Positions 7,570 to 43,084 of a DNA stretch of 64,000 bases are shown piece after piece. The number at the start of each line of letters is the position of its first letter. Positions within the stretch are counted from its first letter, which is position 1. The notes below the pieces were generated by a model. It worked only from the letters and a program-made list of their open reading frames with translations. It was not told the origin of the DNA and made no database searches. The DNA lies in the NCBI GenBank assembly GCA_963831545.1, contig CAWHQX010000011.1, positions 143,206 to 207,205 of the forward strand, given 5' to 3'. The DNA comes from an uncultured Acidobacteriota bacterium (GTDB lineage Bacteria > Acidobacteriota > Terriglobia > Acidiferrales > UBA7541). Position numbers and translations under genes: made by a program.

Positions 7570-7589
7570 CGCTAGGGAAATCCCTAGTT
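7570..7589. promoter_or_regulatory. Island palindrome box 2 (CGCTAGGG-AAAT-CCCTAGTT)
   Basis: TAGACT at 7611-7616 faces the SYLF/YSC84 gene. Confidence 0.8.
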
Positions 7590-7693
7590 TCCCCAAGATG
7601 TTGTGCGAAGTAGACTCTCGGTGTCGGTCCGCCCAAAGCAAAGTTAGAAAGTGCACAGCAACGGTGTTGGTGCGCTTTAGGAGGAAGATTCCA

Positions 7694-8257
7694 ATGAAAT
7701 TGAAGATAATCGGCTGGGTGCTCGCGGTGGCTTTACTGTCGGCAATCGGAACCAGCGCTAAGGATGACAACGACGAAAAAAAGGAAAAATCCCGCAAGAT
7801 GGCTGCCCAGACTCTGCAGGATTTGTATAAACTCGATCCCCCAGCTCAGGCGGCTATCCAGAAGTCGGCCGGGTACGCAATTTTTAGCAACACGGGCGTC
7901 AATCTGTTGCTCAGCACGGCCCGCGGCTCGGGAATCGCCACGAACTCCAAAACCAAACAGGAAACTTTCATGAAGATGGTTTCGGCCGGGGCGGGTCTGG
8001 GCGTCGGCGTGAAGGACTATCGCGTAGTCTTCGTGTTCGAGAATGATAAGGCGTTCACTCAATTTCTCGATTCCGGTTGGTCCGGTTCGGCGCAAACGGA
8101 TGCTGCCGCTAAGGCCGGAGACAAAGGTGGAGCCTATTCGGGGGCGGTCGAGGTTGCCCCGGGTGTCTGGGTCTATCAGATCACGAAGAATGGCCTCGCG
8201 CTTCAATTGACCTTGCAGGGCACGAAATACTACAAGGACGACGACCTCAATAAGTAG
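7694..8257 (+). CDS. Secreted YSC84/SYLF-domain lipid-binding protein
   Basis: Signal peptide MKLKIIGWVLAVALLSAIG; motifs AGYAIF, GAGLGVGVKDYRVVFVF, GLALQLTLQGTKY; RBS GAGGA before ATG 7694. Confidence 0.8.
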   Translation: MKLKIIGWVLAVALLSAIGTSAKDDNDEKKEKSRKMAAQTLQDLYKLDPPAQAAIQKSAGYAIFSNTGVNLLLSTARGSGIATNSKTKQETFMKMVSAGAGLGVGVKDYRVVFVFENDKAFTQFLDSGWSGSAQTDAAAKAGDKGGAYSGAVEVAPGVWVYQITKNGLALQLTLQGTKYYKDDDLNK

Positions 8258-8342
8258 TCGAGCATCAAGATGCGAGACGGGGTCCACAAGCTCAGTCCGT
8301 TAGCTAATCTGTGTCTGCGGACTCAATCGAGGACGGTACGAG

Positions 8343-8558
8343 GTGGCTCCGATGCAGGACGAGGGCGAAATCGATCAGAGGGCCTCAGACGCTGAGCTGA
8401 TGGTGATAGTGCGTCGAGCGCAGGAAGAGCTTGAGGCCCACGGCGAATCGAATCAAGTAAATCTGCTCTTGCGTGACTTTGCGAGGGCACTTCTGAAACA
8501 ACGTTTGCTACTAAAGGTGGAGTTCGTTCGGATGATCGAACTGAGTCGGCGGAAGTAG
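8343..8558 (+). CDS. Small hypothetical helical protein
   Basis: 71-aa ORF with plausible composition lying between same-strand genes; no family recognised. Confidence 0.35.
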   Translation: MAPMQDEGEIDQRASDAELMVIVRRAQEELEAHGESNQVNLLLRDFARALLKQRLLLKVEFVRMIELSRRK

Positions 8559-8613
8559 AGCGCAATGGACAATCAGGGGAAACTTGGTCGAATTCGACAA
8601 AGGAGAGCAGAAT

Positions 8614-9420
8614 ATGAAGTCAAGTAACAGTTGGATGAGAAGCGGCCTCGTGCTCGCTATGGCGACAGTCTGTATTGCCTTCGCTTGGAGCGCCGGGGCA
8701 CAAGTACAGACCACAAAGACTACGACTGTCGGCCAGAGCAGCCAGGTAGTCAAAGTCGATCGCGGCGAGGTTCTGGCGGTGGAAGGCAACGATTTGATGG
8801 TGAGAATGGCAGATGGCTCGATCCGTCACTTTGAGAACATCCCCGAGAGCGCCAAGGCTACAGTTGACGGAAAACAGATGGGAATTCACGACTTGAAACC
8901 GGGCATGAAGCTGCAGCGCACCATAACCACAACAACCACTCCTCAGATCGTTACCACTGTCGAGACAGTGAAGGGAAAGGTCTGGCATGTCACTGCGCCA
9001 CTCTCGGTGATCTTGACGCTGGAAAACGGAACGAATCAATCGTTCAAGATTCCGAAAGATCAGAAATTCAAGGTGAATGGAGAAATGGTTGACGCCTTCG
9101 GCCTGAGGAAGGGGATGGTGGTAACAGCGACGAAAATCGTGGAGGTTCCGTTTTCGGTCACGTCACAGGAGAAGAGTGTAAGCGGCACGATGCCGGCACC
9201 CCCGCTAGCCCTGCCAGCTCCGCCAACCGACACTGTTTTACTGATTGCCGAGGGAGAGCCCACGGCTGCTCCACCGGAGGCCGCGGAAACGCCCGCTGTC
9301 CCTATACAAACGAACCCGACGACGACGGGAAGCTACCTTCCAGCCATTGGTCTGGGTGTGTTGCTGCTGATTATTGTTTTGGCCCTGGCAAAACTCGGAC
9401 GCCGGAAGTCCCGAACTTAG
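8614..9420 (+). CDS. Exported beta-rich protein with C-terminal sorting-signal-like anchor; paralog of 25974-26768
   Basis: Signal peptide; core near-identical to the LPKTG protein (GEV..V.GNDL.VRM.DG.IRHF...GKVWHVT.P.SVILTLEN.TNQSFKIP); Pro-rich linker, NPTTTG, hydrophobic helix, RRKSRT tail. Confidence 0.85.
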   Translation: MKSSNSWMRSGLVLAMATVCIAFAWSAGAQVQTTKTTTVGQSSQVVKVDRGEVLAVEGNDLMVRMADGSIRHFENIPESAKATVDGKQMGIHDLKPGMKLQRTITTTTTPQIVTTVETVKGKVWHVTAPLSVILTLENGTNQSFKIPKDQKFKVNGEMVDAFGLRKGMVVTATKIVEVPFSVTSQEKSVSGTMPAPPLALPAPPTDTVLLIAEGEPTAAPPEAAETPAVPIQTNPTTTGSYLPAIGLGVLLLIIVLALAKLGRRKSRT

Positions 9421-13531: not shown

Positions 13532-14021
13532 TTAGCTGCCAGCCAGCCACTTGTTCAGGAGAACCTTAACCTCAACGCGTCGGTTTCCTGTGCGTCCGGC
13601 AGCAGACTCGTTGGAGGCTACGGGAGCCACTTCTCCCATAGCGCCAAGCGCCACGATGTGCCGAACCGGAACGTTGCAGTTCTGGAGCAAATATGCAATT
13701 ACGTTTTGCGCGCGCTCCATGCTCAGTTTCTGGTTCATTGCCGCGTCGCCGCTGGAATCGGCATAGCCCTTCACTCGAATGATATAGCCCTAAACGTCGA
13801 CGGCATCGTGGGCCAACTTTTTCAGGCTTCCTGATCCGTTGGGGAAATCTTGGGGCTGCCGCTAGCAAAGTGGACAACCAATTTGTACGATCGTATCGCC
13901 GGTGCGGCGGTGATCAGCCCCTTGACGTTTGTCTCGTCATCACATGCGCCTAAGCGACCATTAATGCCACAAAACAGGCGGTCCACAGGCCTACAAGGAT
14001 TCTCATTCGCTTGCTTTGCAT
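13532..14021 (-). pseudogene. Degraded OmpA-family protein (internal deletion, stops, frameshifts)
   Basis: RBS plus MQSKRMRILVGLW signal peptide interrupted by TAG; LKKLAHDAVDV*GYIIRVKGYADSSG...LSMERAQNV...GRTGNRRVEVKV is an OmpA C-terminal domain. Confidence 0.75.
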
Positions 14022-21656: not shown

Positions 21657-23537
21657 GTGCCGGTTAGCCTGCGCTTGCGCCGGTATCGGGAGATGGTCCT
21701 GGAAAATGTTTCGCTCTCCGGGCAAGGCAATCAGCTTCCGAGAGCATTGCTTGCGTCTGGCTGGGCTTCGCTGCTGACTCTCGTCGTCTTATTCGGGAGC
21801 GGCCAAACCTCGGCTCAAGCGCCTCTGAAAAGAAATGTGCTGATTCTCAGCGACGTGGGTTTGTCGCATTCCCTCACTGCGGAATTTACCCGGGACATTG
21901 TCGCAGAGGTGCGGGATACGCCAGCGCGACATGTCGAGTTTTACTCTGAGAGTCTCGATCTGCAGGCCTTTCCAGGCGGACCTTCGCGAGATGATTCCGA
22001 AGACTGGCTTGCCAAGAAATATGGCGAACATAAATTGGACGCAGTCGTAGCGATTGGTCCGGGCACAATTGATTTTCTCTCCAATGATACCGAGGACCTG
22101 TTCCAAAATGCGCCCATTGTGATTTGCGGGAGTTCCGCGGATCAAGCCAGTAATCCAAAACTCGATGCCAGATTCACAGGAACGTGGGTCCAGCTTAAAC
22201 CAGAAAGAACACTTGAACTGGCTCTGCAGCTTTTCCCAGATACACGTCACGTGTTTGTGGTGGGAGGTAGTTCCGACTTTGACAAAGCAGTGATGTCGTT
22301 GACAAAAAAGGCGCTGGGTTCGGTCAAGCCGACGCCGGAAATTGTCTATCTGACCGGCATGGAAATGAATGGTTTACTGGAACGGCTGCGGAATCTGCCG
22401 GACCACTCCATCGAGTTCTATACTTCATTCTTTCAGGATTCGGCCGGGAATAGATTTCTCAATGCAACTAAAGCCCTTCCGATGATCGCGGCAGCCTCCA
22501 ACGGCCCGGATTTCGGCATGTCTGATGGGTATCTGGGAAATGGGATTGTTGGCGGATACGTTTTGCCCTTTGAAAAACAAGCGAGGATGACAGCCCAAAT
22601 TGTCGGGGAACTACTGGACGGGAAACAAGTCCAGGCAATTCCGATCAAGACTCTTTCCAGTGAGTACGAGTTCGACTGGCGTGAACTCAAGCATTGGCAT
22701 ATCACGGAAGCCAGCCTTCCACTGGGAAGCGTGATCATGTTTCGAGAGCGTGGTCTCTGGGAGCGCACCAAGTGGGCTTGGATCACATCGCTTCTGATCA
22801 TCGCGGCTCTCTCCTCCATTACCTTTTACCTGCAAAGCAGCCGAAAGCAGCTAACGCTGGCCAAGGAAAAGCAGATGCAGCTCAGCGGTCTGCTGATCAA
22901 CGCAGAGGAGAAGGAACGAAGCCGGGTGGCATCCGAACTTCACGATGACTTTAGCCAGAGGCTGGCGTTACTGGCCCTGGGTTTGGAGAGTGTTGACGAA
23001 GCCACGCCCGCTTCTTTAGAGCACGTTCATAAGCAATTGCAGGAGCTTGCCAGGTCCACAAGCGAGCTTGGTTCTGATCTGCACACCCTATCGCATCGGT
23101 TGCATTCGTCCACGCTCGAGAGCCTGGGTCTTGTTCCGGCTGTCGACGCTTTATGCAGAGAATTCACTTGCAAGCAAGGCATCAGGGTCGACTTTTTATG
23201 CGATGAAATTCCGCGATCAATCAATCCCGACGCAGCCCTTTGTATCTTCCGCATCGTTCAAGAATCACTGCGGAACGTGAAGAAGTACAGTGGTGTGGAG
23301 GAGGCGGAGGTGGACCTGCGAATGACGGGCGACAGATTAGAGATTCGCGTGAGGGACAAAGGACGCGGATTCAGTTTGTCGGAACTCGGCCAGAATGGGG
23401 GTCTCGGTATCCGGAGCATGGAACAACGCGCGCGGCTGTTGGGTGGAAATTTTGAGATTCACTCTGAGCTCGGAAAGGGTACGAGAGTCGAGGCCTGGGT
23501 GCTGCTCAAACCCGTAGTACGGCATACGACGGCCTAG
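21657..23537 (+). CDS. Sensor histidine kinase (SBP-like sensor, HisKA_3, HATPase_c), copy 2; start may be downstream
   Basis: ERSRVASELHDDFSQ; collinear paralog of 15524-17395. Confidence 0.93.
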   Translation: MPVSLRLRRYREMVLENVSLSGQGNQLPRALLASGWASLLTLVVLFGSGQTSAQAPLKRNVLILSDVGLSHSLTAEFTRDIVAEVRDTPARHVEFYSESLDLQAFPGGPSRDDSEDWLAKKYGEHKLDAVVAIGPGTIDFLSNDTEDLFQNAPIVICGSSADQASNPKLDARFTGTWVQLKPERTLELALQLFPDTRHVFVVGGSSDFDKAVMSLTKKALGSVKPTPEIVYLTGMEMNGLLERLRNLPDHSIEFYTSFFQDSAGNRFLNATKALPMIAAASNGPDFGMSDGYLGNGIVGGYVLPFEKQARMTAQIVGELLDGKQVQAIPIKTLSSEYEFDWRELKHWHITEASLPLGSVIMFRERGLWERTKWAWITSLLIIAALSSITFYLQSSRKQLTLAKEKQMQLSGLLINAEEKERSRVASELHDDFSQRLALLALGLESVDEATPASLEHVHKQLQELARSTSELGSDLHTLSHRLHSSTLESLGLVPAVDALCREFTCKQGIRVDFLCDEIPRSINPDAALCIFRIVQESLRNVKKYSGVEEAEVDLRMTGDRLEIRVRDKGRGFSLSELGQNGGLGIRSMEQRARLLGGNFEIHSELGKGTRVEAWVLLKPVVRHTTA

Positions 23538-23715: not shown

Positions 23716-24414
23716 ATGGAAAACGTTTTAATAGACAGATCTCGACCAAAGTTCCTGATCGCCGATGACCATGCGATGTTCGCGGAGGCTTTGAGAGTTT
23801 TTCTGGAGCGAACATACCCAGTTGTCGGGTTGGTGTCCGACGGCCGCGCCTTGATTGAAGCAGCCTCACGACTTAAGCCTGAAATCATTATCGTCGATGT
23901 GGCCATGCCCATCCTGAATGGCCTAGATGCGGCGCGCAGAATTAAGGAGCAGTCTGCCAAGATCAAGTTCATCTTCCTGACGATGCAAGAGGATCCAAAT
24001 CTGGCTGCAGCGGCGCTGGAACTGGGCCCGATCGGGTTCGTGCTGAAGCACACGCCTGGGTCGGAACTATTGAAGGCGATTGATCATGTACTGCATGGAA
24101 AGCCCTATGTGACTGCCAAGCTGAGGGCGGAGGATTGGGTCACAACGAAGGCGCGGGCGCGACAGTTCGCTACGGAATTGACGGCACGGCAGCGCGATAT
24201 CGTGCAGTTGTTTGCCGAAGGGCGGCCCATGAAGGAAATCGCTGGATTGCTGAACCTAAGCGAAAAGACGGTGGAATTCCACAAGCATCACATTATGGAA
24301 GCGTTCAACGTTAAGAATAATGCCGATCTGATATTGTTCGCTTTGAAACATGGACTTATCTCGATCGATCCCGAGCCCTCTGTGCCGGCACGCGCGGGCC
24401 ACAACGGGCGATAA
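23716..24414 (+). CDS. NarL/FixJ-family response regulator, copy 2
   Basis: IADDH, IIVDVAMP; HTH AEGRPMKEIAGLLNLSEKTVEFHKHHIM. Confidence 0.95.
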   Translation: MENVLIDRSRPKFLIADDHAMFAEALRVFLERTYPVVGLVSDGRALIEAASRLKPEIIIVDVAMPILNGLDAARRIKEQSAKIKFIFLTMQEDPNLAAAALELGPIGFVLKHTPGSELLKAIDHVLHGKPYVTAKLRAEDWVTTKARARQFATELTARQRDIVQLFAEGRPMKEIAGLLNLSEKTVEFHKHHIMEAFNVKNNADLILFALKHGLISIDPEPSVPARAGHNGR

Positions 24415-24440
24415 CACCCTCTGCAATTGCAAACTGACGG

Positions 24441-24460
24441 GACTAGGGATTTCCCCAGTG
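24441..24460. promoter_or_regulatory. Island palindrome box 7 (GACTAGGG-ATTT-CCCCAGTG)
   Basis: TAACAT at 24482-24487, upstream of the receiver-only protein. Confidence 0.75.
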
Positions 24461-24569
24461 GCGAAGTCCGTTCCCACCACCTAACATCCGATTCTGGTTT
24501 GGTACCATCGCATCGTGGGACGCTGACGTGGCGGACCCACCGTGCGCGATTGTTGGATGGAGGCGAACA

Positions 24570-24965
24570 TTGATTCGCCCACGCGTGCTCCTGGCCGATG
24601 ACCATCTCGAATTCCTGGAAGCGGAAATCGCTTTGCTGCGACCTCATTTTGAACTGGTGGGCACGGTGAGCGATGGAGTTTCGCTTATATCTGAGGCCGC
24701 GCGGCTCAGTCCGGACGTTGTGGTGGTTGACGTCACCATGCCGTTTATGAACGGCATCGACGCGGTCCGCAAACTCGTCGAGTCCGGCTGCACTACCAAG
24801 TTTGTATTTCTGACGATTAATACTGGCGCGGAGTTCGTTAAAGCATGCCAGCAAGCAGGAGCTCGGGGCTATGTCTGGAAAAGCCGAATGAACGCCCATC
24901 TGATTCCAGCGATTTACGCGGCCCTCAAAGGCCTTCCGTATATTTCTCCGTTAACTTCCTCGTGA
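24570..24965 (+). CDS. Single-domain (receiver-only) response regulator
   Basis: VLLADDH, VVVDVTMP, GYVWK; ends without an HTH. GGAGG precedes TTG 24570. Confidence 0.85.
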   Translation: MIRPRVLLADDHLEFLEAEIALLRPHFELVGTVSDGVSLISEAARLSPDVVVVDVTMPFMNGIDAVRKLVESGCTTKFVFLTINTGAEFVKACQQAGARGYVWKSRMNAHLIPAIYAALKGLPYISPLTSS

Positions 24966-25064
24966 GTATTGGAGCTTCTTTGTCCAGAAATGGCCGCCAC
25001 CGCAGGGATTGCTCTCGCAAGATTTGTCGAACGGTGCGGCAAATGCGGGAGAGGCGGATTCGCT

Positions 25065-25084
25065 GGTTAGGGATTTCCCTAGTT
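25065..25084. promoter_or_regulatory. Island palindrome box 8 (GGTTAGGG-ATTT-CCCTAGTT)
   Basis: TAAAAG at 25107-25112, upstream of the sortase. Confidence 0.8.
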
Positions 25085-25163
25085 GTCGGTGCTATTTGGA
25101 AAAGCCTAAAAGGGTAGGCAGCGAATTCACTTCGCGAAAACAGCGGGAATACGCTACCGGTCC

Positions 25164-25910
25164 TTGCGGAAGGCTTCCGAAATGGTGCGGGGCAACATAA
25201 TGAACGCGCTCAGCGGCTTTGAACGGCTCCTGCTGTTCCTGGGATTGCTGCTGCTCTCGGTGTACGCCGTCGGCCGCATTTATAGTTCGCTCTACTCTCA
25301 TCTCGCCGTGCACGAATTCTGGGGTTCGCATGGCTCCTCGAGCACAGTCAACCCCGCCGGCGCATCCCAGCAGAATCACGGAATTCCGGATTTTCACTTG
25401 TGGTCGGTAAAACGGATTGAGGCCTACCACATGAGCTTAGTCGCAAGCGTCCCGCCTCCCCTAGGCGTTCTAAGAATTCCTTCGGTTGATCTGGAAGTGC
25501 CGGTGCTCGAAGGAACCGACGACCTGATGCTGAATCGCGGGGTGGGACACATCGATGGCACCAGCGCCCTCGATGAGGGAGGTAACGTTGGTATTGCCGG
25601 ACACCGCGATGGATTTTTTCGAGGGCTTAAGGACGTTCATGTTGGCGACACGATGGATGTGTATAGCGAAAAGGGAAATTTGCGTTATGTTGTAGATGAG
25701 ATTGTTGTTGTTCCGCCAGAGGACGTTTCTGTCCTGGCGCCGCGATCCAAACCCACTCTAACTCTTGTAACCTGCTATCCCTTTTATTTTGTGGGCAGTG
25801 CTCCGCTGCGTTACATCGTTCACGCCTCGATCACAGATGTGAACAGTCTCTCGGCTTCTGATCAGCCACACACTCTGGTTAAGGAGGGAGGAGGCCGAGT
25901 CAAAAAATGA
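25164..25910 (+). CDS. Class D sortase (alternative start ATG 25200)
   Basis: N-terminal TM; catalytic-triad motifs GIAGHRD, LTLVTCYPF, PLRYIV. Confidence 0.93.
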   Translation: MRKASEMVRGNIMNALSGFERLLLFLGLLLLSVYAVGRIYSSLYSHLAVHEFWGSHGSSSTVNPAGASQQNHGIPDFHLWSVKRIEAYHMSLVASVPPPLGVLRIPSVDLEVPVLEGTDDLMLNRGVGHIDGTSALDEGGNVGIAGHRDGFFRGLKDVHVGDTMDVYSEKGNLRYVVDEIVVVPPEDVSVLAPRSKPTLTLVTCYPFYFVGSAPLRYIVHASITDVNSLSASDQPHTLVKEGGGRVKK

Positions 25911-25973
25911 ATTGCTCTGGAAGTGGACGGCGCGGTTCGAGAAATTACCCTATTTCAATAGTGGAGGAAACAA

Positions 25974-26768
25974 ATGAAGTCAGGCAATTGTCCAAAAACA
26001 GTACTGGTATTGTTGTTGGGAACACTCTGTTTCGCGTTGGCGATTTCGACCAATGCGCAAATACAAACCGAAAAGTCCGCGACGGTAGGGCGGACGACTA
26101 TGCAAGTTCAGATCGAACGTGGAGAAGTTGTGCTTGTGGACGGCAACGACCTCGTCGTCAGGATGGAGGATGGCACCATTCGGCACTTCCCCAATGTGTC
26201 GGAAAGCGCCAAGGTCACCGTGGATGGCAAGGAACTCGGTATTCATGACTTGAAGCCGGGCATGAAACTCCAGCGAAGCATCATTACCGCGTCCACTCCC
26301 CAAACCATCACGACCGTCCAGACAGTCACCGGTAAAGTGTGGCATGTGACCCCGCCAAACTCGGTGATCCTGACACTGGAAAACAACACCAACCAGTCAT
26401 TCAAGATTCCCGAGGGACAGAAGTTTAATGTGAATGGCGAGATGGTCGATGCATTTGGCTTGAAAAAGGGAATGATTGTCACCGCCACCAAAATCGTTGA
26501 GGTTCCCGAGGTCGTAGTGTCTCAACATAAGCATGTAATCGGAACCATGCCTGCGCCACCATCTGCTCCTCCAGCTGACGTTCCTATGTTGATTGCAAGG
26601 GCAGAACCCACGCCGGCGCCAGAAACTGCAGAAGCCTCTGCGGCCCCGGCTCCAACGAAGACACTGCCGAAAACTGGGAGCGAACTGCCTCTGCTCGGGC
26701 TGCTTGGGCTTCTTTGCCTAACGGCCTCACTCGGAGTCAAGTTCCTCCGCGCAAATATCAGCGTTTAG
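25974..26768 (+). CDS. LPXTG-anchored exported protein, probable sortase substrate
   Basis: Signal peptide, Pro/Ala linker, LPKTG + hydrophobic helix + K/R tail; directly downstream of the sortase. Confidence 0.9.
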   Translation: MKSGNCPKTVLVLLLGTLCFALAISTNAQIQTEKSATVGRTTMQVQIERGEVVLVDGNDLVVRMEDGTIRHFPNVSESAKVTVDGKELGIHDLKPGMKLQRSIITASTPQTITTVQTVTGKVWHVTPPNSVILTLENNTNQSFKIPEGQKFNVNGEMVDAFGLKKGMIVTATKIVEVPEVVVSQHKHVIGTMPAPPSAPPADVPMLIARAEPTPAPETAEASAAPAPTKTLPKTGSELPLLGLLGLLCLTASLGVKFLRANISV

Positions 26769-26781
26769 AGTAACCCCGAAA

Positions 26782-26814
26782 GAGGAGGAGTCTCGGCGTT
26801 GCTGGCTCCTCCTC
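26782..26814 (+). terminator. Hairpin after the LPKTG gene
   Basis: GAGGAGGAG...CTCCTCCTC stem, similar to the hairpin after the paralog at 9431; the U-tract is weak. Confidence 0.45.
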
Positions 26815-26935
26815 ACAGTTGCGCGGCAGAGGAGAGCCCTAGAAGACTAAGCAGTGAGGTTCAGGCGGTCGCCGTACTCATTTGCTGGTTGGCCAGTGGA
26901 ATCCAGCGGAGGAAGTCACGAAGGGAAGTTCAACT

Positions 26936-28288
26936 ATGAGAATGAAAACTCTACGGTCCAAACTACTCAGGAAGATCGGCCAAGATGCTCTGGCAGTACT
27001 GAGCTCCCTGCTGCTTGTGCAAATGGGCCCGCCCGTTGCTGCTCAAGCGCAACAGAAACCTGACAGCCCGGTCTCGAAAGGGAGCGTTAACACGCCGCCG
27101 GAGCAGGAAGAATCTGCCGCCAAAATACCCCCGGACCAACTTGACTCCCTCGTGGCTCCTATCGCGCTTTACCCAGACCCAATGCTCGCGCAGGTTCTGG
27201 CTGCATCGACCTACCCATTAGAACTGATGCAGCTCCAGCAGTGGCTGGCAAAGAACAAAGACCTGAAGGACAAAGCGCTCGTGGATGCGGTCTCGAAACA
27301 ACCCTGGGACCCGAGCATTCAGGGCTTGGTTGCACTCCCCGAGGTAGTGAAGCGCCTCGCAGAAGACATTCAGTGGACCACCGATCTAGGCAACGCGTTT
27401 CTGGCCCAGCAAAGCGACGTGATGGAAGCAGTTCAGCGCATGCGGAAAAAGGCCACCGACGCCGGCAACTTGAAATCGACCGAGCAGCAAAAGGTAGAAA
27501 CCAAGGTTGTGGAATCCAAACAAGTCATCGTCATCGAACAATCCAATCCGGAAGTTGTTTACGTTCCGAGCTATAACCCTGTCGTCGTATACGGCCCACC
27601 TGTCTATCCCTATCCACCCATCGCTTACCCGCCTCCTGGCTACTACGCTGCCGGCGTAGCGATTTCCTTCGGTGTGGGACTGGCGATGGGAGCGGCATGG
27701 GGCGGAGGCTGGGGATATGGCTGCGGTTGGGGTGGCAACAACAACGTCACCATCAACAACAACAATAATTTCAACCGCAACTCCAACATCAACGGGGGAA
27801 ACCGCAACAACATAAACGGCGGCAACCGCGTCAACCCGAACGGAAATCGCGCTGGCGGAGCGGGCGGCAACAATTGGCAACACAACTCTCAACACCGTGG
27901 TGGAACTCCCTACTCGGATCGTTCGACGGCAAACAAATACGGTGGAACAACCCGAGGAGCGTCGGCGTCCGATCGGCAGGCCAATGCGCGTCAGAATCAA
28001 GCAAATTCTGCGAATAGGGGTCAATCCGGCGGACGAGGGAATCAGGGTCAACTGGGTGGACAACAACCGCGTGCGAGCGACCGTAGTTCGGGCGGCAATC
28101 GTGGTTCATCTGCAGGCGGCGGAGACCGCGGTGGCAATCGCGGTGGATCATCCGGCGCAAGTAACAGGAGCACCGCCCTTGGTGGTGGTTCCAGCGGCAG
28201 AAGCGGCAGCGCAGCGCGAGCCAGCAGCTCGCGGGGCTCGGCCAGTATGGGATCGCGCGGCGGCGGCGGCGGCGGGCGGAGGAGGTAG
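26936..28288 (+). CDS. DUF3300-domain protein with Asn/Gly/Arg low-complexity tail
   Basis: QLDSLVAPIALYPDPMLAQVLAASTYP, WDPSIQGLVALPEV, YVPSYNPVVVYG. Confidence 0.9.
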   Translation: MRMKTLRSKLLRKIGQDALAVLSSLLLVQMGPPVAAQAQQKPDSPVSKGSVNTPPEQEESAAKIPPDQLDSLVAPIALYPDPMLAQVLAASTYPLELMQLQQWLAKNKDLKDKALVDAVSKQPWDPSIQGLVALPEVVKRLAEDIQWTTDLGNAFLAQQSDVMEAVQRMRKKATDAGNLKSTEQQKVETKVVESKQVIVIEQSNPEVVYVPSYNPVVVYGPPVYPYPPIAYPPPGYYAAGVAISFGVGLAMGAAWGGGWGYGCGWGGNNNVTINNNNNFNRNSNINGGNRNNINGGNRVNPNGNRAGGAGGNNWQHNSQHRGGTPYSDRSTANKYGGTTRGASASDRQANARQNQANSANRGQSGGRGNQGQLGGQQPRASDRSSGGNRGSSAGGGDRGGNRGGSSGASNRSTALGGGSSGRSGSAARASSSRGSASMGSRGGGGGGRRR

Positions 28289-28295
28289 ACAAGTC

Positions 28296-29339
28296 ATGAA
28301 CGAGGAAACCAAAATGAACCCAAGAAAAACAAATGTACTAGCGCGAAAGGCTTTCGTGAGATTGTCGATCGTTGGCCTCTCTTGCGCCTTGACGTTGCTC
28401 ACCTCGTCACGTTTATTCGCGCAGGCGAATCCACCCGAATCTTCGCCGCAAAACCAGGAAACCTTTGCAACTCCGAAGGACGCTGCTGACGCACTCATCA
28501 AAGCAGCGAGCACCTTTGATGTGACGGCGCTGAAAGGGATTCTCGGACCGGGTGGCGACGATCTGGTCGCCTCGGAAGATGTTGTTCGAGACAAGAACAT
28601 CGCCATCGCATTTGCCGAGGAGGCGCAGCGAAAAACTTCAATAGCCATCGACCCGAAAAAACCGGAACGGGCCATTCTTATCGTGGGAGACAGGAACTGG
28701 CCGATGCCGATACCGATTGTGAAACGAAATGGAAAATGGCTCTTCGATACCAAAGCTGGCCGACAAGAGATGCTCTACCGGCGCATCGGCTCGAACGAAC
28801 TGGATGCCCTTCAGATTTGCCGAAACTACGTGGATGCCCAGCACGAATACGCATTGCAAAAACACGATAATTCCGAAGTGAATCAATACGCTCAGAGAGT
28901 TATCAGCACGCCCGGAAAACAAGACGGACTTGTATGGCGTAATCCGGATGGAAGCCTGGGCGGACCAATCTCTGAAGGAATTGCAGATGCTTTGGAGCAG
29001 GGCTATACGGATAAAGCAAAGCCCTATCACGGCTATTTCTTCAAAATCCTCAAAGGGCAAGGCCCCGCGGCTCCGCTGGGAAAGATGGATTTTGTCGTCG
29101 AGGGTGCCATGATCGGTGGCTTTGCTCTGGCCGCTGCACCGGCCGACTACCGCGTTACCGGAGTCGAAACCTTCATCGTCAGTTATGAAGGAATTGTCTA
29201 CCAAAAGGACTTGGGCCCAGACACTCTAAGGATCTTCAGGGAAATGGAGCTGTACGACCCAGACAAATCGTGGAAACCTACGAACGATAGCTGGCCGGAT
29301 GATGCGTCCGGTGATCTGTCAGAGCAAGCCAAGAATTGA
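28296..29339 (+). CDS. DUF2950-domain protein
   Basis: FATPKDAADAL, WPMPIPIVK..GKWLFDT.AG..EML.RRIGSNEL, PYHGYFFKILKGQG, IVYQKDLG; follows DUF3300. Confidence 0.9.
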   Translation: MNEETKMNPRKTNVLARKAFVRLSIVGLSCALTLLTSSRLFAQANPPESSPQNQETFATPKDAADALIKAASTFDVTALKGILGPGGDDLVASEDVVRDKNIAIAFAEEAQRKTSIAIDPKKPERAILIVGDRNWPMPIPIVKRNGKWLFDTKAGRQEMLYRRIGSNELDALQICRNYVDAQHEYALQKHDNSEVNQYAQRVISTPGKQDGLVWRNPDGSLGGPISEGIADALEQGYTDKAKPYHGYFFKILKGQGPAAPLGKMDFVVEGAMIGGFALAAAPADYRVTGVETFIVSYEGIVYQKDLGPDTLRIFREMELYDPDKSWKPTNDSWPDDASGDLSEQAKN

Positions 29340-34200: not shown

Positions 34201-34438
34201 AATCCTGATGACGTCGTTCGCGTTTATTCTGGGATGCGTTCCTCTTTGGACGGCGAAGGGAGCAGGCGCTATTGGTCGGAAGGTGCTGGGGAGTTCAGTG
34301 ATCACCGGCATGGGTGCCGCAACCGTTCTTGGAGTTTTCCTCGTACCCGTCCTGTTTGTGGTGGTTGAGCGCATCGCCAAGAAAAAACCTCACGTGGTCG
34401 TGGAGCAACCCGCCGTACTCGAAGGAGGCCACGACTGA
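31286..34438 (+). CDS. RND efflux permease (HAE1, AcrB-like)
   Basis: MSKFFISRPIVA, AIGLVVDDAIVVVE, GLTAKNAILIVEF, RLRPILMTSFAF. Confidence 0.96.
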   Translation: MSKFFISRPIVAIVISIVTVIGGLVAMMKLPVAQLPDIVPPQINVSATYTGADALTIEQSVATPLEQQMNGVDNMLYMMSTNANDGTMTLKVTYDVGTNVDIDQVNTQNRVSQASPNLPTSVNQYGVTVKKLMGLPLLVLSVYSPDGTYNGQFLGNYATININDALLRVPGVGQVTNFGAADYAMRIWVKPDQLTKLGMTVTDLTNAVQQQSAVNPAGQIGAEPAPKGQQFTYAVRAPGRLVNPEDFGNIIVRQNPDGSTVRLKDVSRIELGSLVYQQIGRYNGKPAVIIAVYQAPGSNALAVAKQVKEQMEELKSNFPGGLEYVVAMDTTLPITEGMKEIISTLLEALVLVIIVVFLFLQNWRATLIPLLAVPVSLIGTFAIFPILGFSINTLSLFGLILAIGLVVDDAIVVVEAVEHHIEHGLSPKDATHKAMEEVSGPVVGIALVLSAVFVPMAALGGIKGLLNQQFAITIAISVLISAFNALTLSPALSAMLLRPRKKSKGPLGKFFDLFNRAFEKMTGGYVSWSHLLIRRWALAMLFLVGISVIAVGMGRRLPTSFIPEEDQGYAFLQIQLPDAASLQRTDAVMRKIDEMLAHMHGVQSFSGISGFSLLSNTSASYTGFYFLQLEPWEERKTDELSATGLMRSLNQKLSKEIPESMAFAFGPPAIPGLGTAGGFTFMLQDRSGGSLQQLWDTLEQLTQAARKRPEIASLVTTFRPSVPQLFVDVDQDRILKQGLQFGEVFQTLQAFLGGAYVNQFNRFGRQWKVYLQAEPQFRNSADQISNFYVRNSKGDMTPLASLVTIKRVSGPEYTNRFNLFRSIQINGTPAPGVSSGQAMAAMEQVAKEVLPSGFGYAWSDMSFQEKKAEGGQAMVFGMSFLFVFLILAALYESWSLPFSVLLSVPVAVLGAYGGLLLRKFDNNVFAQIGLVMLIGLTAKNAILIVEFAVLEHSKGKELVEATLEGARLRLRPILMTSFAFILGCVPLWTAKGAGAIGRKVLGSSVITGMGAATVLGVFLVPVLFVVVERIAKKKPHVVVEQPAVLEGGHD

Positions 34439-35865
34439 TGCGAATCACCAGCGCAGTTGTGCTTCTGTCACTTCTCTTGACCGGCTGCAGCGTGGGCCCC
34501 AAATACAAGCGCCCGGAGATCCAGCCTCCGGCGGACTTCTATGCAGAGAGACAGATAAGCACGAGTTCCGAGGCGGATTTGGCGTGGTTCGATTTATTCA
34601 AGGATCCGGTTCTGCAAGGCCTGATACGGGAAGCTCTCAAGAACAACTATGACTTACAAGTAGCCTTCGCGAGGGTAGAGCAGGAACGTGCACTCTCCGG
34701 CGTGGCTCGTTCCCAATATTACCCTCAGGTAGGATATGGCGGAAGCATTTCCGGGCAGCAGGCTCCATACCCCCTCGTTTCGAACCACACGTATTATGCC
34801 TACAACTTCAGCACCATCTGGGAAATTGACCTGTTCGGGCGTATCCGCAAACTGAATGAAGCACAGCGGGCCGCGTATTTTGGCAGCGAGGATGCCAGGC
34901 GCGATATTCGACTCCTGGTTCTGTCGGAAGTTGCGCAGGGATACTTTCAACTGCGAGCACTCGATGCCGATGTCGAGGTTGCGAGTCGAACGGTCAAGAG
35001 TTTTCAGGTTACTCTGGACATCTTTCAGCACCGGCTTGAGGGCGGCGCGGCTTCCGGTCTAGAGGTTGCTCGGGCACAAGCGGCGCTTGCGAACGTCGCC
35101 GCTGTGATCCCAGACTTGCGGAGACAGATCGTGGCGCAAGAGGCAGCGTTGAATTTGCTTTTGGGGCGCGCCCCCGGCCCGATTGCCCGCGGCAGCGCTT
35201 TGGCCGACCAGTTTGACCCGCCGGAGGTGCCCACCGGGTTGCCGTCACAATTGTTGGAGCGTCGGCCCGATCTCCAGCAAGCAGAAGAGAATCTCATTGC
35301 TGCAAACGCCAACGTCGGCGTCGCAAAAGCCAATTTTTTTCCGACGATTTCCTTGACGGGAGTGCTAGGTGGAGTAAGCCCGCAACTTTCGGAACTCACA
35401 GGTGCCGGAAGGGCGTGGAGCCTCGCCGGAAATTTGGCTGGTCCTCTTTTTACGGCTGGCCGTTTAAAGAATGAATATCGGGCATCTCTGGCGCAACGCG
35501 ACCAGGCAAAGATCGCCTTTGAGAAGTCCGTTACGCAGGCCTTTGGCGAGGTCTCAACGTCGCTCTCAGCCCATCAAGAGCTGGCCAATGCGTACGCGGA
35601 ACAGCTCGGCTCCGTCGAGGCATATCGTGAGTCAGTTCGGCTGTCGAGCATCCGATATGACAGCGGCCTCGCAAGCTATCTCGAGATCATTGATGCGCAG
35701 ATCCAAATGTATCCGGCAGAGCAGTCGGCCATCATCTACGACCTCGGTCGCAAGGTGTCCCTTGTCAATCTGTATCGAGCGCTGGGCGGCGGTTGGAATC
35801 TGAATGATGCGCAGTGGAGTAGCACGAGTGGGACGGCTGCGCCAGCGCCGTCACCTACCCCGTAA
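34438..35865 (+). CDS. Efflux outer-membrane lipoprotein (NodT/OprM family)
   Basis: LLTGCSVGPKY, WEIDLFGRIR, LLERRPDL, LYRALGGGW. Confidence 0.95.
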   Translation: MRITSAVVLLSLLLTGCSVGPKYKRPEIQPPADFYAERQISTSSEADLAWFDLFKDPVLQGLIREALKNNYDLQVAFARVEQERALSGVARSQYYPQVGYGGSISGQQAPYPLVSNHTYYAYNFSTIWEIDLFGRIRKLNEAQRAAYFGSEDARRDIRLLVLSEVAQGYFQLRALDADVEVASRTVKSFQVTLDIFQHRLEGGAASGLEVARAQAALANVAAVIPDLRRQIVAQEAALNLLLGRAPGPIARGSALADQFDPPEVPTGLPSQLLERRPDLQQAEENLIAANANVGVAKANFFPTISLTGVLGGVSPQLSELTGAGRAWSLAGNLAGPLFTAGRLKNEYRASLAQRDQAKIAFEKSVTQAFGEVSTSLSAHQELANAYAEQLGSVEAYRESVRLSSIRYDSGLASYLEIIDAQIQMYPAEQSAIIYDLGRKVSLVNLYRALGGGWNLNDAQWSSTSGTAAPAPSPTP

Positions 35866-41294: not shown

Positions 41295-42869
41295 TCATTC
41301 GGCCGATTGCGCCCTGACAAAGTTGTATTTTGCGCTGAACATAATCCGCGGCGCATTGCCCGTAGAGCCGTCTTTGTTTACTCGCCAGCCATAAAGGAAT
41401 TCCGTGCCCAAGGTCAATGAGCCGTAAGGATTCCAGATCAGGTTACCCGCCGCATAATTGCTTTGGTGAAATACGGAGCCGGGCTGGGCTTCGGTGTTTT
41501 GGACTTGGACAAAGCCGTATACCACGCTTGAGCGCAAGCCCTTAAGCCAGAAATGTTGCAAACCCGCGTAGGTTGCGAATACGGGCAGCGCTTTGAGTTC
41601 GGGATTCTGCAAGCTGGTGACCGCCGCGTCGATTCCCAAGCCAGACGTATCATTGATGTAGCGTTCGATGCCATTCCCGTAAGCTCCCTGATAAACGATG
41701 GTATTCTGCCTCCATAACTTTTCCGATCCCGCCAGATTGAAGCCCCACCCGAACACGGAGTCATGCCGGCCATCTGGCAGATACGCCGCTACATCTCGAA
41801 ACAATGCGGAAACCTGCACATGGCCGCCGTCCATTTCACGCCGCAGCTTCAAGGCTCCGTCAGGCGCAGGGCTGTTCGGTTGAGCACTGAAATCGGGGGT
41901 GGTGAATGCTACGTCCGAGTTGGGCTTCTCAACCGATAGGCTGAAGGTCGTCTTTTCTGCGACCAAAAGACTGTAACGAAATTGTGGGTTGCGAATGGAA
42001 ACCTGCGCGTTTGGGCCCTGGAAGTCGAGCTGGTCAGTCCCCGCGTCAGGATCCATGAAGTTAGAGAAGGTCTGGCCGATCAGGAAATTCTTTGCTTGTC
42101 CGTAAGCATGGCGCAATCTTGGAGTGGTTGCGTTGGAACCGAAAAGATCCGCTTCAACGAAGAATCTGATCGATTCGCCTGACTTCAGCGGAACCAGGAA
42201 GTCAAGATTGATGCGCGTCGGTCGTACCGATATGGTCGTGTTCGTAAATGCGGCCGGAGCCGGAATTGGGATCGTGGCCGGAATGAAGCTATCGACATTT
42301 CCTGCCGGCTTCAAATCGTAGATAAAGTCAGTTTTGGCATAACCGCCTATCCGCAATAATGTGCTCGTACCTGGCAGCCGGAAATATCCCGGAAAACGCG
42401 GGTCCAGCGGTTCGTTATTGATGCGCGGGGCGGCCAGCGGATCCTGCGCAAAGGTGCGATAGGTCGAAGTTGTGTTGCTAATTTCCTCTTTTTTCGGAGT
42501 CAGTTCCGATTCCACTTGCGTCTTTTCTTCACTCTGCCATGTGGCAACAGCCGCCGCTGGAGCGGGTGCGGCTGCTGCAGTTGGAGCTTTGGCAGGAGCA
42601 CCCGAAATGCGCTTCAGTTCGCTCTGCACCTCTGCCATCTGGTTCTGCAGATTGTCCAGTTTCTTTTGAAGAGCCTCTATTTGGGACGGCGTCGCCTCTT
42701 GTCCTTGCGCGCGAGCTGATTGCGAGCCGGCGACGAAAAAGACTGCACAGAACAAACAAATTGAAGTTGTTTTACGGAGACGGATCTTTGTTCTCGCACC
42801 GCATCCAAGCGCAATTGCGGAGTTAAATGAAAAGCGAACGTTGGGGTAATACGCGTTCAGACAATTCAT
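41295..42869 (-). CDS. DcaP-family trimeric outer-membrane porin (start uncertain)
   Basis: N-terminal coiled coil (IEALQKKLDNLQNQMAEV), IGGYAKTD, RLRHAYG, LIGQTFSNFMD, C-terminal SAKYNF. Confidence 0.8.
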   Translation of the reverse strand: MNCLNAYYPNVRFSFNSAIALGCGARTKIRLRKTTSICLFCAVFFVAGSQSARAQGQEATPSQIEALQKKLDNLQNQMAEVQSELKRISGAPAKAPTAAAAPAPAAAVATWQSEEKTQVESELTPKKEEISNTTSTYRTFAQDPLAAPRINNEPLDPRFPGYFRLPGTSTLLRIGGYAKTDFIYDLKPAGNVDSFIPATIPIPAPAAFTNTTISVRPTRINLDFLVPLKSGESIRFFVEADLFGSNATTPRLRHAYGQAKNFLIGQTFSNFMDPDAGTDQLDFQGPNAQVSIRNPQFRYSLLVAEKTTFSLSVEKPNSDVAFTTPDFSAQPNSPAPDGALKLRREMDGGHVQVSALFRDVAAYLPDGRHDSVFGWGFNLAGSEKLWRQNTIVYQGAYGNGIERYINDTSGLGIDAAVTSLQNPELKALPVFATYAGLQHFWLKGLRSSVVYGFVQVQNTEAQPGSVFHQSNYAAGNLIWNPYGSLTLGTEFLYGWRVNKDGSTGNAPRIMFSAKYNFVRAQSAE

Positions 42870-43084
42870 ACAAGGACCTCTCTGAATCGCAGAGATACGT
42901 AAAAAACGAATTCCGTTGCGTTCCGACTGCGGAGATTCGGCAATTTGCTGCGGCTCCGAATGAAACAACGTTCTCTTGGCAGCATCTTTCGTAACCCGGC
43001 GAACCGGCAACCATGCGAAAGATCGATACTGCAAATTCTTTCGCCATTTGTATTTGCAGGGTAAGAGACAATTTCACGCGATGA

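Follow-up and report, generated by a model that had tools for sequence, protein, structure and literature searches.

What sortases do in bacteria that possess an outer membrane is an open question, and it is raised here by a two-gene locus of an uncultured Acidobacteriota bacterium (class Terriglobia, order Acidiferrales), in which a gene for an intact sortase is followed by a gene for a protein ending in an LPKTG sorting signal. The locus lies in a stretch of 64,000 nucleotides (assembly GCA_963831545.1, contig CAWHQX010000011.1, positions 143,206 to 207,205 of the forward strand), referred to below as the window; coordinates count from its first nucleotide. The genome is 5.0 Mb in size and 94% complete. 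Do the two genes form a working sortase system in a diderm cell, and to what would the substrate be joined? The reading adopted is that of a dedicated sortase system native to diderm Terriglobia with attachment of the substrate to peptidoglycan as its likeliest outcome, a reading in which about half of our confidence is placed.

An intact sortase gene is followed by the gene of an LPKTG protein

The sortase matches PF04203 over profile positions 1–123 of 125 (98.9 bits against a gathering threshold of 26.6, E 2.3e-28). Its best match in the PDB is the class D sortase of B. anthracis (2ln7, E 2.5e-19), with whose GHRD, TLxTC and RYI motifs its own histidine (AGHRD), cysteine (TLVTC) and arginine (LRYIV) align, and all of 120 homologues carry TLVTC or TLITC. 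A preliminary description, made from the sequence alone, had called the enzyme intact on the strength of these motifs, and the matches bear this out. At the N-terminus, basic residues are followed by the hydrophobic anchor LLLFLGLLLLSVYAVG, a type II anchor that would put the catalytic domain in the periplasm. Translation most likely starts at ATG 25182 rather than at TTG 25164, because close homologues are 242 residues long and begin with MVQGN or MLRGN; GGAAGG sits 8 nucleotides upstream of this ATG.

When the sortase was compared with the NCBIfam class models, the two best-scoring models were both of class D and both fell below their cut-offs (NF058671, 134.7 against 140; NF033746, 124.1 against 165). 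The class GN, E and C models gave about 75–77 bits against cut-offs of 158–160 (TIGR03784 for class GN, the 'marine' class, 77.4 against 158.25; class C, 75 against 160). Because every curated class cut-off was missed, the enzyme is termed class-D-like only and is filed neither in class D nor in the proteobacterial GN system; the class D of the preliminary description is thus a nearest-neighbour label.

The substrate reading frame begins 63 nucleotides downstream of the sortase gene, with a GGAGGA ribosome-binding site 7 nucleotides before its ATG. Its product has the signal peptide, LPKTG motif, transmembrane stretch and basic tail that had been noted previously, and scores above the cut-off of the LPXTG-anchor model (TIGR01167, 16.9 against 15.9). 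All stop-to-stop frames of the genome were then screened for LPxT[GASN] followed by a hydrophobic stretch and a basic C-terminus, a scan that the preliminary description had suggested. The product of 25974–26768 was the only strict match in the 5.0 Mb, and the genome encodes one sortase, the enzyme of this locus. Since the genome has no second sortase and no second strict LPXTG protein, the adjacency of the two genes is more than chance, and the pair is a predicted dedicated system that couples one enzyme to one substrate.

A diderm host with a diaminopimelate-type MurE

That the cell has an outer membrane had been concluded from an OEP outer-membrane factor, a DcaP-type porin and an OmpA-domain remnant encoded in the window. 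The conclusion is borne out by the genome, which also encodes LpxC (E 9e-97) and three Omp85/BamA-family proteins, the OmpA domain itself being broken. The remnant lies between a PAS-repeat gene and the first kinase/regulator pair of the window. MurE is of the 2,6-diaminopimelate type, with 558.6 bits against a cut-off of 373 for NF001126 and 308 against 536 for the lysine type, and carries the DNPR motif. A peptidoglycan acceptor is therefore predicted to be chemically available.

The sorting motif tracks the adjacent sortase

A word-seeded search returned more than 5000 homologues of the substrate, none of them with a Pfam domain, and when 1.84 billion representatives were scanned exhaustively with HMMER, 805 clusters (50% identity) were obtained at E ≤ 1e-3. 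A large protein family with neither a Pfam model nor a solved relative is thereby defined. It is essentially confined to Acidobacteriota, the homologues being labelled Candidatus Acidoferrales/Acidiferrales, Terriglobales or Acidobacteriaceae. The names they carry in databases are 'LPXTG-motif cell wall-anchored protein', 'hypothetical' and 'RNase P p29'. The last of these, given by JGI to some homologues as 'RNase P/MRP subunit p29', was rejected as a spurious small-barrel match, since the protein is exported.

Loci were scanned with one genome per species; 300 were returned, and the counts of copy types and gene orders given here rest on the 78 that were analysed. Substrate copies were sorted into types by their C-terminus, and conservation was calculated from a 56-sequence alignment with a mean identity of 36%. 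The only invariant columns in the whole alignment are P232 and T234 of the sorting motif; L231 is 98% conserved, and P239, L240, G242 and G245 of the hydrophobic stretch are 92–98% conserved. An LPxT[G/A/S] motif was found in 57 copies (LPKTG in 26, LPKTA in 24), and in 49 of them a sortase gene lies directly upstream; most of the rest are extra copies in genomes where the sortase adjoins another one (L018/L024, L020/L035, L022/L026). Another 20 copies keep the hydrophobic stretch and an RGKSRT-like tail with a decayed motif (NPTTG, KSTTG, NPTAG, SPMMG, SPIAG or nothing recognisable). Ten of these are preceded by a SYLF/Ysc84 gene; listed locus by locus, none of the 20 adjoins a sortase, although a scripted tally counted one that does. 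A sortase-linked lineage with a strict motif, set against a sortase-less sister lineage in which the motif decays, is as expected if the sortase processes LPKTG between threonine and glycine. These comparisons support the view that the pair is a functional sortase and its substrate, with the presence of the motif tracking the adjacent sortase. Natural members of the family are sorted, have a decayed motif or are plainly anchored in the membrane, and these three forms amount to built-in controls.

Orphan second copies with LPKT[G/A] were seen at L014–L018, L020 and L022, each having directly upstream its own copy of the palindromic box that also precedes the sortase gene. Where a genome has such a second copy, two substrates probably share one sortase. 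Conservation extends into the hydrophobic part of the signal, as S-x-LPL-[IVL]-GLLG. The same pattern was observed in unrelated LPxTA/G proteins encoded beside other Terriglobia sortases (L094, L006–L009), and an extended sorting signal specific to the lineage may exist.

The window itself holds a substrate paralogue, in a sister module made up of a box, a SYLF/Ysc84 exported-protein gene and the paralogue gene. The paralogue is 61–65% identical to the substrate and ends in NPTTTG, a transmembrane stretch and RRKSRT, with no sortase adjacent. Ten further Terriglobia loci show this arrangement of SYLF gene, paralogue and box. NPTTTG might be taken for a signal of the class B kind, but since positions 1 and 4 vary across the paralogue lineage it is more likely a decayed sorting motif, although individual copies may still carry such a signal.

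Predicted structure of the substrate

Across the family, A28 is 94% and Q29 98% conserved. This junction (26055–26060) at the predicted signal peptide cleavage site is thus kept at 94–98% in a family of 36% mean identity, sortase-less paralogues included, which implies that an N-terminal Gln is selected, possibly as a pyroglutamate cap. An AlphaFold2 model built from the 56-sequence alignment has a helix at residues 7–28 and a predicted local distance difference test score (pLDDT) above 90 over most of residues 40–190; for the core modelled alone the mean pLDDT is 88. The two halves of the core are similar in the model and also match at sequence level (E 3e-5). Foldseek searches of the PDB with the full-length and core-only models gave no match at E ≤ 1e-3 (best TM-score 0.25), and a profile search of PDB sequences with the substrate was empty. 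Of what had been said about a beta-rich core, the beta-rich character therefore stands, in a confident all-beta model, and the fold search yielded no PDB relative. A weak local likeness to tandem small beta-barrels was seen (ModE Mop, MalK/PotA TOBE, EF-P/eIF5A), but with TM-scores of at most 0.25 this was not accepted as an assignment and the fold family was left unassigned. Between core and motif, the family has a spacer with a median length of 41 residues (range 28–60) and 55% Pro and Ala; the segments by which Gram-positive surface proteins span the wall are similar.

Age and distribution of the pair

The pair spans a range from Candidatus Acidoferrales to the cultured Edaphobacter modestus DSM 18101 and E. 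aggregans DSM 19364 (50% identity for the sortase, 43% for the substrate), and its GC content and composition match those of the flanking DNA. It is read here as ancient and native to Terriglobia. Of the order's other families, 16 genomes were covered, and one of them has a sortase.

A different sortase cassette was observed at L006–L009 and L012 (genomes G003, G005, G008, G009 and G012, all of the same genus as the host), composed of an LPQTA/LPHTA protein of about 250–270 residues, a VWA protein of about 349 residues and a sortase; G012 holds both cassettes. The whole block from kinase to RND genes, with 65–91% protein identity to the window, was found on a 250-kb contig labelled 'uncultured Acidimicrobiales' (L029, CAVUAV010000011.1), a bin that is probably mislabelled. 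The pair also occurs on short contigs labelled Eisenbacteria and Limnocylindrales (L080, L090).

Operator and gene neighbourhood

The box upstream of the sortase gene, box 8, is a copy of the palindrome CTAGGGAWWTCCCTAG, which occurs 12 times in the window with up to 3 mismatches, against 0–2 times in shuffled sequence. Genome-wide, close to half of such matches are these 12 copies. At least 22 orthologous loci have a box in this position, just ahead of the sortase gene. In paralogue loci a box precedes the SYLF gene, and orphan LPKT[G/A] copies have one directly in front of them; more distant Terriglobales loci lack the box. As a prediction, the suggested co-regulation of the pair through box 8 is well supported by this conservation. 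The kinase, NarL/LuxR-type regulator and receiver encoded upstream are presumed to read the box. A scan for the sigma-70 consensus found no promoter; a −35/−10 pair after the box (TTGTCG, 18 nucleotides, TAAAAG) was read by eye only.

The order kinase, LuxR-type regulator, receiver, sortase, substrate, DUF3300, DUF2950 and RND fusion protein is kept in about 17 loci, and DUF3300 and DUF2950 genes are also near the pair in five rearranged contexts (L055, L082, L083, L084, L090). Unusually for a protein that is exported, the DUF3300 product ends in a tail of about 190 residues (27700–28288) in which Gly, Asn, Arg and Ser abound (GGNRNNINGGNR…RGGGGGGRRR). The hairpin behind the substrate gene folds at −24 kcal/mol, no better than shuffled sequences (z −0.69), and is a weak candidate for a terminator or attenuator. 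An Rfam scan of 24400–27100 found nothing. The features of the locus and the related features of the window are listed in Table 1.

Table 1 Features of the sortase locus and related features of the window
Feature	Position	Strand	Remarks
Sister module	7572–9420	+	Box 7572–7587; SYLF/Ysc84 exported-protein gene 7691–8257; substrate paralogue 8614–9420
OmpA-domain remnant	~13580–13831	−	Internal TAG stop; open frame only 85 aa
Sensor kinase	21657–23537	+	HisKA_3, HATPase_c, ABC_sub_bind
NarL/LuxR-type regulator	23716–24414	+	Response_reg, GerE
Stand-alone receiver	24528–24965	+	Response_reg; own box at 24443
Operator 'box 8', TTAGGGATTTCCCTAG	25067–25082		16-bp palindrome copy; TTG directly after; 100 nt before ATG 25182
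Sortase, 242 aa	25182–25910	+	Type II membrane anchor, periplasmic catalytic domain (predicted); His-Cys-Arg triad
Other possible sortase starts	TTG 25164, ATG 25200		
Sortase substrate, 264 aa	25974–26768	+	Uncharacterised Terriglobia family
Signal peptide, residues 1–28	25974–26057	+	Cleavage predicted between TNA and Q
All-beta core, residues 29–190	26058–26543	+	Two duplicated small beta-barrel modules with very long joining strands (model)
Pro/Ala-rich spacer, residues 191–230	26544–26663	+	Low pLDDT
LPKTG sorting motif	26664–26678	+	Predicted cut T234/G235
Hydrophobic stretch SELPLLGLLGLLCLTASLGV and basic tail KFLRANISV	26679–26765	+	20 hydrophobic residues
GC-rich hairpin after substrate gene	26782–26814	+	No U-tract; candidate terminator or attenuator
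DUF3300 protein	26936–28288	+	PF11737, E 1.4e-73; conserved neighbour, possible partner
DUF2950 protein	28296–29339	+	PF11453, E 8.8e-105; conserved neighbour
OEP outer-membrane factor	34438–35865		Behind RND pump
DcaP-type porin	41295–43034	−	

Proposed mechanism and alternatives

From the features described above we infer cleavage, acceptor, product location and regulation as follows. The substrate would be exported by Sec, its signal peptide being removed to leave an N-terminal Gln, and the hydrophobic stretch and basic tail at its C-terminus would retain it in the inner membrane. The sortase, with its catalytic domain in the periplasm, would cleave LPKTG between threonine and glycine, form a thioacyl intermediate on the cysteine of TLVTC and transfer the C-terminal threonine of the substrate to an amine. 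By analogy, the acceptor is most likely the free side-chain amine of meso-diaminopimelate (meso-DAP) in lipid II or peptidoglycan, which is favoured because class D relatives from Bacillus use it and MurE is of the DAP-adding type; for the class D enzyme of B. anthracis, Marraffini and Schneewind reportedly identified DAP as the acceptor. The transfer would leave a duplicated beta-barrel module hung from the periplasmic wall by a Pro/Ala spacer of about 40 residues, and this module may act with the neighbouring DUF3300 and DUF2950 proteins. Transcription would be switched on by the adjacent kinase and NarL-type regulator via the palindromic box next to the promoter, and the operon would belong to a stimulus-induced envelope regulon together with RND efflux, transporters and the sortase-independent paralogue.

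A more specific proposal, which is tentative and on balance improbable, is that of an inducible covalent tether. A beta-rod would be fixed to meso-DAP through its C-terminal Thr, its barrels would engage the DUF3300 and DUF2950 proteins or the outer membrane, and the paralogue without a sortase would play this part from the inner membrane. If true, such a tether would be the functional equivalent of Braun's lipoprotein, made by a sortase and switched by stress, and its acceptor would be the first identified for any diderm sortase.

Several points weigh against attachment of the substrate to peptidoglycan by a dedicated sortase. Eight LPKT[G/A] copies have no sortase adjacent, and one metagenome-assembled genome (L015/G044) has an intact LPKTG copy with no sortase found in its assembly, perhaps through assembly incompleteness or perhaps as a counter-example to strict co-occurrence. 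The cassette is accessory: some sortase is present in 13 of 25 genomes of the same genus and a strong substrate match in four of the 25, the genome analysed included, so the product would not be a core envelope tether. The substrate fold offers no functional clue. The acceptor is proposed by analogy to a class whose cut-offs this sortase does not reach, and a diderm cell offers other amines, such as those of phosphatidylethanolamine and of outer-membrane proteins.

The last point leads to the alternative that an active sortase uses an acceptor other than peptidoglycan, namely phospholipid ethanolamine, a component of lipopolysaccharide (LPS) or capsule, or a lysine of a partner such as the DUF3300 or DUF2950 protein. 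With ethanolamine, the substrate could gain a C-terminal lipid anchor and be moved to the outer membrane. Diderms are known to attach cleaved proteins to lipid or LPS in the rhombosortase/GlyGly-CTERM and PorU/type IX secretion systems, and a sortase that lies outside curated class D may differ in nucleophile specificity. DUF3300 and DUF2950 genes accompany the pair in several independent gene orders, but many loci that hold the pair are devoid of them. None of the diderm sortases has a known acceptor (PMC13712847). Set against this are the closest characterised enzymes, which use DAP, and an organism predicted to make DAP-type peptidoglycan, and the alternative is considered unlikely. It is more doubtful still that the sortase acts as a processing protease only, cutting LPKTG and leaving water to resolve the intermediate, so that the beta-module is freed to the periplasm or to onward export. 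In vitro, sortases deprived of a nucleophile do carry out slow hydrolysis, and release could be the sole effect of the enzyme, given that plainly membrane-anchored paralogues exist. A protein with a signal peptide only would, however, reach the same end state with no enzyme, and a transpeptidase fold in which Arg and a strictly conserved Thr are kept across the class suggests transfer.

Polymerisation of the substrate into a covalent fibre, pilus-like or head-to-tail, is very improbable. It would suit an elongated substrate of tandem beta-modules with a near-invariant mature N-terminus (A followed by Q), but no lysine is more than 72% conserved among the LPxTG members, no pilin motif was found, and there is a single sortase with a single subunit gene, the class C score being below that of class D. 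The preliminary description had named a polymer among the ways of tethering the protein in the periplasm, beside peptidoglycan and a lipid; the lack of a conserved lysine disfavours that option. Head-to-tail ligation through the N-terminal Gln was rejected, as this Gln is equally conserved in the sortase-less paralogues. Finally, the patchy distribution within the genus might suggest that the pair came from a monoderm by horizontal transfer and is now a relic without function. Both frames are intact, the motif and the catalytic triad are strongly conserved, the substrate family is essentially Acidobacteriota-only, the host operator is conserved upstream and the composition is native, so that a relic is hardly credible.

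Comparison with known sortase systems

A full-text literature search found no paper on sortases of Acidobacteria. The first physiological link for a diderm sortase dates from 2026 and concerns the GN system of Shewanella (PMC13712847). There, the sortase operon is controlled by the adjacent PghKR two-component system and the target SO2195 protects envelope integrity under beta-lactam stress, while according to the authors the anchoring site remains unknown (PMC13712847; bioRxiv 10.1101/2023.05.05.539549). The present locus offers a second, independent system, in a soil phylum that ranks among the most abundant. It also makes the question of sortase function in such bacteria testable, with a minimal two-gene operon, a defined operator, candidate regulators and orthologues in Edaphobacter type strains that are cultured and harmless.

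The class D sortases of Bacillota, represented by B. anthracis SrtC/'SrtD' (2ln7, with BasH/BasI and LPNTA) and B. subtilis YhcS, share with the locus enzyme the GHRD, TLxTCYPF and RYI motifs, the N-terminal membrane anchor and the small number of dedicated substrates encoded alongside. As regards an LPxTA-type motif, LPKTA (24) and LPKTG (26) are about equally frequent among the orthologues, and the locus itself has LPKTG. A DAP-type wall would be available as acceptor in both. Unlike them, the locus sortase scores below both curated cut-offs and belongs to a diderm host with LPS and BamA. Its substrate family is unrelated and without a Pfam domain, its sorting signal is extended (LPKT[G/A]-S-x-LPL-x-GLLG), and its control would be by a NarL-type operator, not by sporulation.

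With the proteobacterial GN system, which comprises a TIGR03784 sortase, a TIGR03788 VIT/VWA target, PdsO and PdsS/PdsR (PghKR) and is exemplified by Shewanella SO2192–SO2196, the locus has in common that the host is a diderm, that a lone sortase is paired with a neighbouring target ending in a motif and a transmembrane stretch, and that a two-component system is encoded alongside. The two differ in sortase clade, as the TIGR03784 score indicates (77.4 against 158.25), and in the target, which here matches none of the target models and has neither a VIT nor a VWA domain. The locus operon also has no intact PdsO-like OmpA gene in it or next to it, the only OmpA match of the window being the broken remnant 11 kb away, and its regulator is of the NarL/LuxR type with a HisKA_3 kinase.

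The nearest parallel within the phylum is the acidobacterial cassette of LPQTA protein, VWA protein and sortase, which likewise has a class-D-like sortase, a single adjacent LPxTA substrate and a PL-x-x-LLG stretch. Its substrate is unrelated, however, and it has an extra VWA partner, with the sortase last in the operon. The present analysis contributes the contrast between sorted and decayed-motif paralogues, the DAP-type wall, the conservation of the operator, the association with DUF3300 and DUF2950 and the orthologues in cultured Edaphobacter.

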